A DNA stretch of 64,000 nucleotides. It comes from Escherichia coli (GTDB taxonomy: Bacteria; Pseudomonadota; Gammaproteobacteria; Enterobacterales; Enterobacteriaceae). A model generated the notes under the pieces. The model searched no databases and had not been told where the DNA came from. It worked only from the letters and a program-made list of their open reading frames with translations. The stretch's first letter is position 1. Every line of letters begins with the position of its first letter. The stretch lies in the NCBI RefSeq assembly GCF_044324875.1, contig NZ_CP172185.1, one strand, 5' to 3'. Below are positions 6,036 through 49,224 of this stretch, piece after piece. Position numbers and translations under genes: made by a program.

Positions 6036-6150
6036 AATGCGAGCGTGCCTGATGCGCTACGCTTATCAGGCCTACGAGACTCCTGCAATATATTGAATTT
6101 GCATGATTTTGTAGGCCGGATCAGACGTTAACGCCGCATCCGGCAAGAAG
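6036..6150. repeat. REP/BIME-type palindromic units downstream of gyrB
   Basis: Imperfect palindromes gcctgatgcgctacgcttatcaggcctac and tgtaggccggatcagacgttaacgccgcatccggca, typical of enterobacterial REP elements. Confidence 0.6.
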
Positions 6151-47762: not shown

Positions 47763-48215
47763 ATGATCTGGATAATGCTCGCCACGCTGGCGGTGGTGTT
47801 TGTGGTTGGTTTTCGGGTGCTGACATCCGGGGCCAGAAAAGCGATTCGCCGTCTCAGCGATCGGCTGAATATCGATGTCGTACCCGTGGAGTCGATGGTC
47901 GATCAAATGGGAAAGTCAGCCGGTGACGAATTTTTACGTTATTTGCATCGTCCGGATGAGTCGCACCTGCAAAACGCCGCGCAGGTGTTGCTCATCTGGC
48001 AAATTGTCATTGTCGATGGTAGCGAACAGAACCTGCTGCAATGGCATCGGATTTTACAAAAAGCCCGCCTTGCCGCTCCCATTACCGATGCTCAGGTCAG
48101 GCTGGCGCTGGGTTTTCTGCGCGAAACCGAACCTGAAATGCAGGATATTAATGCTTTTCAGATGCGCTATAACGCGTTCTTTCAGCCTGCCGAGGGCGTT
48201 CACTGGCTGCATTAA
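47763..48215 (+). CDS. yicN: Uncharacterised protein YicN (150 aa)
   Basis: Start taken at MIWIMLATLAVVFVVG; single N-terminal TM. Confidence 0.85.
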   Translation: MIWIMLATLAVVFVVGFRVLTSGARKAIRRLSDRLNIDVVPVESMVDQMGKSAGDEFLRYLHRPDESHLQNAAQVLLIWQIVIVDGSEQNLLQWHRILQKARLAAPITDAQVRLALGFLRETEPEMQDINAFQMRYNAFFQPAEGVHWLH

Positions 48216-48224
48216 AACCGCTTC

Positions 48225-48295
48225 GTCTTATCAGCCTACAGACCGCGCCTGACCTGTCGGGTGGATAAGGCGTTCATGCCGCATCCGGTATCGAA
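48225..48295. repeat. REP element
   Basis: GCCTGACCTGTCGGGTGGATAAGGCGTTCATGCCGCATCCGG, REP-type palindromic unit. Confidence 0.55.
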
Positions 48296-48330
48296 ACTGA
48301 CAGTTGGTGAACGCATTATCTACGTTCTAT

Positions 48331-48654
48331 TTACAGCAGCACCTCCAGCCCGTGTTTTTGCACAATGCTGAGCAGTTTTAATGAAATGCCATTGGGGCGT
48401 TTAGCGCCACTTTCCCATTTTTGTACAGTTGAAACGCTGGTATTGAGATAGTGAGCGAAGACGGGCTGACTCACTTTTAATTTTTCCCGCAGTGCTTTTA
48501 TCTCAACAGGTTGTAAGTCTTGCACGCTGGTCAGGCAGGCTTTGTCAAAAGTACGCATCGTTTCGGCAGAAATAGCATCGACGCTGGACAATCCAGCCGC
48601 TGCGCTGTGAATAGCTTCAAATGCAGGACTTTTAAATTTAGTTTTTGCAGTCAT
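48331..48654 (-). CDS. Putative antitoxin, XRE/Cro-type HTH DNA-binding protein (107 aa)
   Basis: HTH segment VSQPVFAHYLNTSVSTVQKWESG; second gene of a two-gene operon, overlapping the upstream gene by 17 nt. Confidence 0.8.
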   Translation of the reverse strand: MTAKTKFKSPAFEAIHSAAAGLSSVDAISAETMRTFDKACLTSVQDLQPVEIKALREKLKVSQPVFAHYLNTSVSTVQKWESGAKRPNGISLKLLSIVQKHGLEVLL

Positions 48655-48997
48655 AGCAGATCTCTGTCAGTTCTTTAGTGTTAATCATTGCTGTTAGTTG
48701 GGCTTTCGTCAGGAAGGCATAATGCTTTGCAAGTTCACGAAACCCAGCCAGTTCCTGACTATTGATGTTCGACATATCCTGTTTTGCATATAAAAACGTG
48801 TAAAACCAATTGCTTCCCCCTTTTGCCAGAATAATTGCACGCTCACGATTTTGGTGAAGGCGCTTTTTAAAAACGCCACCGCCAAGTGCATCAGCTTTAC
48901 CTTGTTCCGTTTCTAAAATGGCCCGGCACAACTCTTCATCTGTTATTGCATGAGACCTGGCTTCCCTTGCAAACCATTTGGTTTTAAACACGCGCAT
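48638..48997 (-). CDS. Putative type II toxin, RelE/HigB-like (119 aa)
   Basis: Small basic protein first in the operon with the HTH gene (toxin-first order as in higBA); inserted between yicN and nepI. Confidence 0.75.
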   Translation of the reverse strand: MRVFKTKWFAREARSHAITDEELCRAILETEQGKADALGGGVFKKRLHQNRERAIILAKGGSNWFYTFLYAKQDMSNINSQELAGFRELAKHYAFLTKAQLTAMINTKELTEICYDCKN

Positions 48998-49224
48998 ATC
49001 GTTGAGGTCCTGTTGTTAAAGTATATCACCAAGTGCAATACTTTATCCCTTGTTCCCAACACAATCGCGAAAATGCATATCACCTTGCCCTATGATTTTT
49101 ATTTCTTCGAGCAGCCTCGAACTTTTCCCACAACACCGTAAAAGTTGCAAAAACGTTAAATGCGTCACACATTTCAATGTTAAAGTGGTCGGCTTTTCCC
49201 CTGAAACATGCCACGGGTAACACC

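Follow-up and report, generated by a model that had tools for sequence, protein, structure and literature searches.

The closest relative of solved structure to the gene pair described here is higBA-2 from the Vibrio cholerae superintegron (VcHigB2/HigA2; PDB 5JAA, 5JA8, and 8A0X). VcHigB2 is a ribosome-dependent mRNase that requires the active-site residues K49, R51, R64, Y82, and K84 for activity, and HigA2 neutralises it via a disordered N-terminus (PMC5416850). VcHigA2 has a single inverted-repeat operator that spans the -10 region, with base contacts made by R68, E71, N72, and R77 (PMC11006873). More generally, the toxins of Pfam family PF06296, to which VcHigB2 belongs, have been reviewed as ribosome-dependent mRNases that are encoded in toxin-antitoxin order and carry the names HigB2, RelE, or StbE (PMC11980606). 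We have analysed a 64,000-nt stretch of Escherichia coli DNA (contig NZ_CP172185.1 of assembly GCF_044324875.1; hereafter the window) in which 2 minus-strand genes between yicN and nepI encode a 119-aa toxin-like protein and a 107-aa helix-turn-helix (HTH) protein. We consider it highly likely that these genes form a chromosomal type II toxin-antitoxin (TA) operon of the HigB2/HigA2 family, that this operon is of ancient origin at the nepI-yicN site in Enterobacteriaceae and has been inherited vertically, and that the allele without it, as found in E. coli K-12, is a deletion derivative.

The E. coli pair shares with VcHigBA2 the Pfam family of the toxin, the 5 active-site residues, the toxin-first gene order, and an antitoxin with a C-terminal HTH of the XRE type, preceded by an N-terminal part that may serve in neutralisation as it does in HigA2. 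However, the toxin is only approximately 20 to 25% identical to VcHigB2; it is 9 residues longer, lacks the long basic beta2-beta3 loop, and, unlike VcHigB2, carries an extra C-terminal helix and strand with a conserved E-I-C-H-D motif. In addition, VcHigBA2 is an integron cassette, whereas the E. coli pair occupies a fixed chromosomal site.

A second described relative is ToxP/AntitoxP, encoded on the Coxiella burnetii plasmid QpH1 (CBUA0028/CBUA0027), the proteins of which are full-length homologs of those in the window (31% identity for the toxin and 55% for the antitoxin). ToxP inhibits translation, while AntitoxP binds both ToxP and the toxP promoter, autorepresses, and provides rescue from ToxP; the VcHigB2 active-site residues were noted as conserved in ToxP, and the K79E substitution abolishes its toxicity (PMC10098735). 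K79 aligns with K72 of the E. coli toxin, and ToxP (121 aa) has the same C-terminal extension. Differences are that ToxP/AntitoxP is plasmid-borne, serves plasmid maintenance, and has genes that overlap by 4 nt only.

A third relative is Salmonella Typhimurium STM3777-STM3778, an ortholog with 70% (toxin) and approximately 80% (antitoxin) identity and with the same protein lengths, gene overlap, and position next to nepI. From the locus-tag offset and protein mass, we infer that this pair corresponds to relBE3ST (SL3743-SL3744). STM3777-STM3778 has been listed as a RelE-superfamily TA module in a paper that is now retracted (PMC3868539), and RelE3ST arrests growth when overexpressed (PMC4366850). 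Literature searches yielded nothing published on the E. coli locus itself, for which RefSeq gives the labels "type II toxin-antitoxin system RelE/ParE family toxin" and "helix-turn-helix domain-containing protein". E. coli K-12 RelBE, K-12 HigBA (YgjN/YgjM), and Salmonella SehAB are more distant: they have the RelE/ParE (BECR) superfamily fold in common with the toxin, and HigBA and SehAB are also toxin-first, but they belong to other Pfam families (PF05016 and PF09907) and give weak fold matches (template modelling (TM) scores of 0.3 to 0.55). Moreover, the SehB and HigA antitoxins have 138 to 142 residues and an N-terminal dimerisation domain, unlike the 107-aa antitoxin. SehAB was considered as a characterised ortholog and rejected, as SehB, with 142 aa and similarity to K-12 HigA, represents a different family.

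A HigB2/HigA2-like gene pair between yicN and nepI

The 119-aa protein has a basic isoelectric point (pI; 9.2) and matches the PF06296 hidden Markov model (HMM; HigB-2 or "PF_RelE") over its full length, with residues 1 to 113 aligned to model positions 1 to 120 at E 9.8e-42. VcHigB2, the sequence of which was checked against the PDB, matches the same model at E 3.3e-8. An AlphaFold (AF2) model of the toxin built from 43 homologs has a mean predicted local distance difference test score (pLDDT) of 90.9 and a predicted TM score of 0.85. When this model was compared with the PDB using Foldseek, the best 11 matches were all VcHigB2 chains, with probability 1.0 and TM scores of 0.44 to 0.62 (10 of them at 0.52 to 0.62); next came the RelE-superfamily toxins Streptococcus pneumoniae HigB, Cami1, RelE, and YafQ. 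The model thus places the protein in the RelE/ParE superfamily, with a predicted RelE-type (BECR) fold in which N-terminal helices pack on an antiparallel beta-sheet.

Alignment of the toxin family to HigB2 with hhalign puts K44, R46, R53, Y70, and K72 of the toxin onto K49, R51, R64, Y82, and K84 of VcHigB2. In our diverse alignment, R53 is invariant, K44, R46, and K72 each reach at least 90% conservation, and position 70 is either Y or F; in a closer set of sequences, K44, R46, R53, and K72 are all invariant. Other profile collections were less informative: scans of NCBIfam and PADLOC returned no model or match for the toxin, and a scan of PHROGs returned families of unknown function only.

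The 107-aa antitoxin, likewise basic (pI 9.6), matches HTH_3 at E 1e-7 and the C-terminal part of MqsA_antitoxin (model positions 53 to 123) at E 1e-5. Its top PDB sequence match by phmmer is V. cholerae HigA-2 (5JAA; E 8e-10), covering residues 46 to 102, i.e., the HTH part. Conservation is high over the N-terminal 45 residues, which include an invariant AIH motif, and in a co-model of toxin and antitoxin fused by a linker, antitoxin residues 10 to 40 are predicted to be helical with pLDDT values of 87 to 94; these are confidence values only, from a co-model without an antitoxin-alone control. Membership of the MqsRA family was considered and rejected: only the C-terminal HTH of MqsA_antitoxin is matched, TIGR03830 reaches 41 bits, short of its cut-off of 61.8, and the toxin belongs to PF06296 and not to MqsR, whereas an MqsRA antitoxin has an N-terminal CxxC zinc-binding domain and an MqsR-family toxin as partner. 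Apart from this, the antitoxin has only below-cut-off HTH families in the NCBIfam scan (MqsA-type and NadS) and weak generic HTH matches in the PADLOC scan.

The 2 genes are tied to each other far more closely than chance would allow. An antitoxin homolog lies directly downstream of the toxin homolog in 79 of 79 other loci, a set made up of O157 and 78 of the 80 species-representative loci, and the 119-aa and 107-aa lengths as well as the 17-nt overlap of the genes are kept in all 10 syntenic orthologs examined (10/10). The overlap makes translational coupling probable. The ratio of nonsynonymous to synonymous substitution rates (dN/dS) is 0.06 to 0.12 for both genes, within Escherichia as well as between genera, and purifying selection therefore acts on both; for the toxin, this means that it is maintained by selection and is not decaying.

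An earlier reading of the window, made from the sequence only, had proposed a toxin-first operon with a 17-nt overlap between a basic 119-aa protein and a 107-aa XRE-type HTH protein on the minus strand. The coordinates, the pI, and the HTH_3 match all agree with this description. The HMM searches suggested at the time assign the toxin to the RelE/ParE superfamily via PF06296 and the antitoxin to HTH_3, and the further proposal of a TA cassette with higBA-like gene order is borne out by the PF06296 match (in round figures, E 1e-41), the VcHigB2 fold, the HigA2-like antitoxin, and the 79/79 pairing.

By analogy with the described relatives, the E. coli module is expected to combine RNase activity, neutralisation, and autorepression. 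The 119-aa toxin would be a RelE-fold, ribosome-dependent mRNA endonuclease that moves into the A site of the ribosome and cuts mRNAs under translation via K44, R46, R53, Y70, and K72. The 107-aa antitoxin would bind and neutralise the toxin through its conserved N-terminal segment, while the C-terminal HTH would mediate dimerisation and DNA binding and so allow repression of the operon at a palindrome that overlaps the -10 region (Table 1). The toxin would then be freed once the antitoxin is degraded or no longer resynthesised.

A conserved palindrome upstream of the toxin gene

In nearly all of the related loci, the best palindrome upstream of the toxin gene is a version of TAGCAC-N3-GTGCTA. 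Allowing up to 2 mismatches, 79 of 79 loci carry this motif no more than 110 nt ahead of the toxin gene, and in 54 of these the match is perfect; at the same threshold, the background is 1 match in 575,977 positions. The palindrome is therefore likely to be the operator of the family. In the window, it forms the core of a longer, imperfect inverted repeat, and a putative extended -10 element, read by eye, falls inside its right half. An operator overlapping the -10 region in this way would resemble the arrangement described for HigA2. The sequence itself is not that of the VcHigA2 operator, which is TGTACGC-N5-GCGTACA. In the phmmer alignment, the DNA-contacting VcHigA2 residues R68, E71, N72, and R77 correspond to S75, Q78, K79, and A84 of the antitoxin; since the base-contacting residues are not conserved, a different operator is expected. 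The architecture thus appears to be of the HigA2 type, with a different DNA specificity. The Coxiella toxP locus has no TAGCAC-N3-GTGCTA site in its upstream region. A second, weaker operator-like site further upstream in the window, which contains a direct repeat of the right half-site, may be due to chance. All features of the cassette are collected in Table 1.

Table 1. Coordinates of the TA cassette and associated features in the 64,000-nt window
Feature	Position	Strand	Remarks
Antitoxin gene, higA2-like	48331-48654	minus	107 aa; conserved N-terminal segment and C-terminal XRE HTH; open reading frame (ORF) list
Toxin gene, higB2-like	48638-48997	minus	119 aa, ATG start; ORF list
Overlap of toxin 3' end and antitoxin start	48638-48654	minus	17 nt, from ORF coordinates; toxin gene first
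Candidate operator, imperfect palindrome	49017-49045	minus	TAAAGTATTGCAC-TTG-GTGATATACTTTA; inverted repeat I2
Candidate operator core	49024-49038	minus	TTGCACTTGGTGATA; ends 26 nt upstream of toxin ATG
Putative extended -10 element	49020-49028	minus	TGaTATACT; read by eye, inference only; inside right half of operator
Weaker second operator-like site	49078-49092	minus	TAGGGCAAGGTGATA; 3 mismatches to family motif; direct repeat D1 of right half-site
DNA absent from K-12-type allele	48291-49130		840 bp, with 41 bp in its place; alignment of window, empty allele, and O157
Toxin codons 29-34 (ETEQGK), K-12 relic	48895-48913	minus	19 nt in empty allele
Repetitive extragenic palindromic (REP) element	48263-48288	plus	Between yicN and cassette; 1 mismatch to REP-type pattern
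Degenerate inverted REP-like arm	48308-48323	plus	Just past antitoxin stop; pairs with 48261-48276; inverted repeat I1, 16 nt, 88% complementary

On the far side of the cassette promoter region, the sequence AGTTGCAAAAACGTTAAATGCGTCACA at 49143-49169, upstream of nepI, is largely conserved in Escherichia, Citrobacter, Klebsiella, and Salmonella, with AGTTGC, AAAACGTTAA, and TCACA as invariant blocks. We take this box to resemble a PurR operator, which would fit the role of nepI in purine nucleoside efflux. The candidate operator of the TA genes is located approximately 110 bp from the box and does not overlap with it.

Ancestry of the nepI-yicN site

In K-12 MG1655, nepI and yicN are adjacent, with a gap of 210 nt. 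The sequence-only reading had stated this adjacency correctly and had concluded from it that the cassette appeared to be a strain-specific acquisition, inserted between the 2 genes; a survey of presence and absence across E. coli genomes was proposed as a check. The data do not support that conclusion and reverse its polarity. Of 5426 complete E. coli genomes, 1716 (32%), O157:H7 and O145:H28 among them, contain the cassette, always as one chromosomal copy at the nepI-yicN site. None of the 5426 genomes has a plasmid copy, and there are no integrase or transposase genes at the cassette.

The order nepI-TA-yicN is also found in Escherichia sp. E1V33, E. coli E69, Citrobacter amalonaticus, and an Enterobacteriaceae gut isolate, as well as in Klebsiella indica, K. 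michiganensis, K. oxytoca, K. grimontii, K. spallanzanii, and K. pneumoniae. The Salmonella pair STM3777-STM3778 adjoins nepI and has a phosphotransferase system (PTS)/sugar island on the far side instead of yicN. Overall, at least 4 other genera have the pair in synteny next to nepI, and the intergenic DNA on the nepI side aligns across genera, including both the operator and the conserved box upstream of nepI. Between genera, the synonymous divergence (dS) of the TA genes is saturated (at least 1.9), compared to 1.2 to 2.4 for nepI and yicN; within Escherichia, dS is 0.16 to 0.29 for the TA genes versus 0.23 to 0.42 for the flanks. This depth of divergence relative to the flanking genes argues against a recent transfer.

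The K-12-type allele itself retains a trace of the cassette. Within the 41 bp that replace the missing DNA, a 19-nt segment is identical to the toxin gene at 17 of 19 positions, a score reached by 0 of 300 shuffles, and both differences are synonymous. This relic has a single match within the 64-kb window, where 0.00 would be expected by chance. Outside the 19-nt core, the filler has no recognisable homology to the cassette, and comparison of the occupied and empty alleles reveals no target-site duplication. Together, synteny, orthologous intergenic DNA, divergence depth, and the 19-nt relic argue that K-12 carries a deletion; presence of the module would be the ancestral state, and the K-12-type allele (approximately 68% of E. 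coli) most probably derives from it by deletion.

The left boundary of the deletion abuts the REP element listed in Table 1. REP-containing DNA on the yicN side had been pointed out before and is indeed there, as judged by a REP-type pattern approximating the E. coli REP consensus; a second copy, at 6118-6143, also fits this pattern. In the occupied allele, the REP element and the degenerate inverted arm together resemble a bacterial interspersed mosaic element (BIME), while the empty allele retains the first REP only, with the deletion endpoint between both. The folding energy of the REP region is no better than that of shuffled sequences, and we do not claim a terminator function for it. For 48259-48350, Rfam gives a sub-threshold match to naRNA4/REP325; the other match is a spurious microRNA.

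Over longer periods, the family is mobile. Flanking nepI or yicN genes are present in only 13 of 80 loci; elsewhere in Enterobacterales, the contexts are mostly unrelated, and members of the wider family are located on plasmids of Rhizobiales, Coxiella, and others. A contig of Erwinia mallotivora (NZ_JFHN01000045.1; loci L022 and L033) has 2 copies of the TA pair, approximately 13 kb apart; outside E. coli, the family can thus occur in more than one copy.

Alternative explanations and neighbouring genes

The mobility of the family, its plasmid-borne members, and the small number of loci with nepI or yicN flanks would also fit a recent or recurrent horizontal acquisition, with the cassette as a mobile addiction module that had entered a REP-associated hotspot in the yicN-nepI interval. 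The GC content of the cassette (43.7%, versus 51.4% for the window), its patchy presence in E. coli, and the REP element at the left boundary point in the same direction. However, Salmonella, Citrobacter, Klebsiella, and cryptic Escherichia have the pair next to nepI with identical position, orientation, protein lengths, and 17-nt overlap, and this conservation extends to the nepI-side intergenic DNA. The between-genera dS, saturated and similar to or higher than that of the flanks, the lack of a target-site duplication, of integrase or transposase genes, and of E. coli plasmid copies, and the toxin-gene relic in the empty allele are also difficult to reconcile with acquisition, which we regard as largely refuted already and as very improbable. 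Patchiness within the species is likewise what an anti-phage abortive-infection module, in which phage infection releases the toxin, might look like, and the RelE/ParE superfamily does include defence toxins (PMC11980606). Nevertheless, PADLOC returns nothing for the toxin and no more than weak generic HTH matches for the antitoxin, the neighbours are housekeeping transporters and do not form a defence island, and such islands are not typically inherited vertically at a single site over long periods; a defence role is, in our view, just as remote.

Somewhat less remote, although still unlikely, is that the module has been domesticated or has decayed, with a harmless toxin and an HTH protein that functions mainly as a transcription factor, e.g., on the divergent nepI promoter. 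This would account for the stronger conservation of the antitoxin, which is 78% to 86% identical among enterobacterial loci, versus 65% to 73% for the toxin, and which is also the more conserved partner in the comparison with Coxiella (55% versus 31%). It would also account for the very long fixation of the chromosomal position beside a conserved nepI control region, for an assay in which RelB3ST did not neutralise RelE3ST (PMC4366850), and for the many E. coli that thrive without the module. On the other hand, purifying selection on the toxin is as strong as on the antitoxin, all catalytic residues are kept, the Salmonella ortholog inhibits growth when overexpressed (PMC4366850), and the operator is separate from the nepI-upstream box by approximately 110 bp. 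We are similarly doubtful about a version in which the TA pair, in place next to nepI before Escherichia, Salmonella, Klebsiella, and Citrobacter diverged, has stayed there ever since and the unusually conserved antitoxin has gained a host regulatory role, e.g., via cross-talk with the nepI control region. If domestication were true, the natural K-12-type deletion would alter that regulation.

Several observations weigh against a functional TA operon of the HigB2/HigA2 family and have to be set beside the evidence for it. HigB2 was not reached when the PDB was searched by sequence, either with the toxin by itself or with 2 profiles, and the hhalign alignment of the family with HigB2 has E 0.0012 and a probability of only 20%. 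The link between the toxin and HigB2 consequently rests on the shared Pfam HMM and the predicted fold. Furthermore, fold is no guarantee of mechanism, given that the HigB-like SehA inhibits RNase III and does not cleave mRNA (PMC12817084). The failure of RelB3ST to neutralise RelE3ST (PMC4366850), already mentioned, counts here as well. In the window, the operator core has 2 mismatches to the family consensus, and promoter and terminator scanners run on 48200-49200 found nothing, with no canonical -35/-10 pair. As for the toxin start, the ATG is ATA in O157:H7 (at the equivalent of 48995-48997). The RefSeq form of the toxin has 117 aa and begins at a GTG at 48991, 2 codons past the ATG, even in strains that keep the ATG; toxin orthologs of other genera have the N-terminus MR[VI]FKT throughout. 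Finally, the antitoxin is basic and better conserved than the toxin, and both traits are unusual for type II antitoxins.

A vertically inherited HigB2/HigA2-like TA operon remains, in our assessment, the best explanation by far. As the pair belongs to a known and already annotated family, in which VcHigBA2 and ToxP/AntitoxP are 2 well-studied members, its practical value is small. What the locus provides is a TA pair that appears to have been passed on vertically at one fixed position in several enterobacterial genera, and a conserved motif, TAGCAC-N3-GTGCTA, that could help to find and classify the subfamily. With its nepI-yicN junction probably a deletion scar and not the ancestral state, K-12 would be a natural null background for the module.

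Directly after nepI, from 50611 to 60867 and beyond on the plus strand, the window encodes a 3418-aa protein with immunoglobulin-like repeats. The equivalent gene in the closest genome is annotated as the inverse autotransporter adhesin IatC and is followed by eilA, encoding a HilA-family regulator, and by an IpaD/SipD-type needle-tip gene, whereas K-12 and O157 have yicS and nlpA after nepI in place of the 3418-aa gene. In O157:H7 E32511 (L001 2678-4011), adeQ, which is located 2 genes from the cassette, is annotated as a pseudogene with a frameshift, whereas the window and K-12 both have an intact adeQ.

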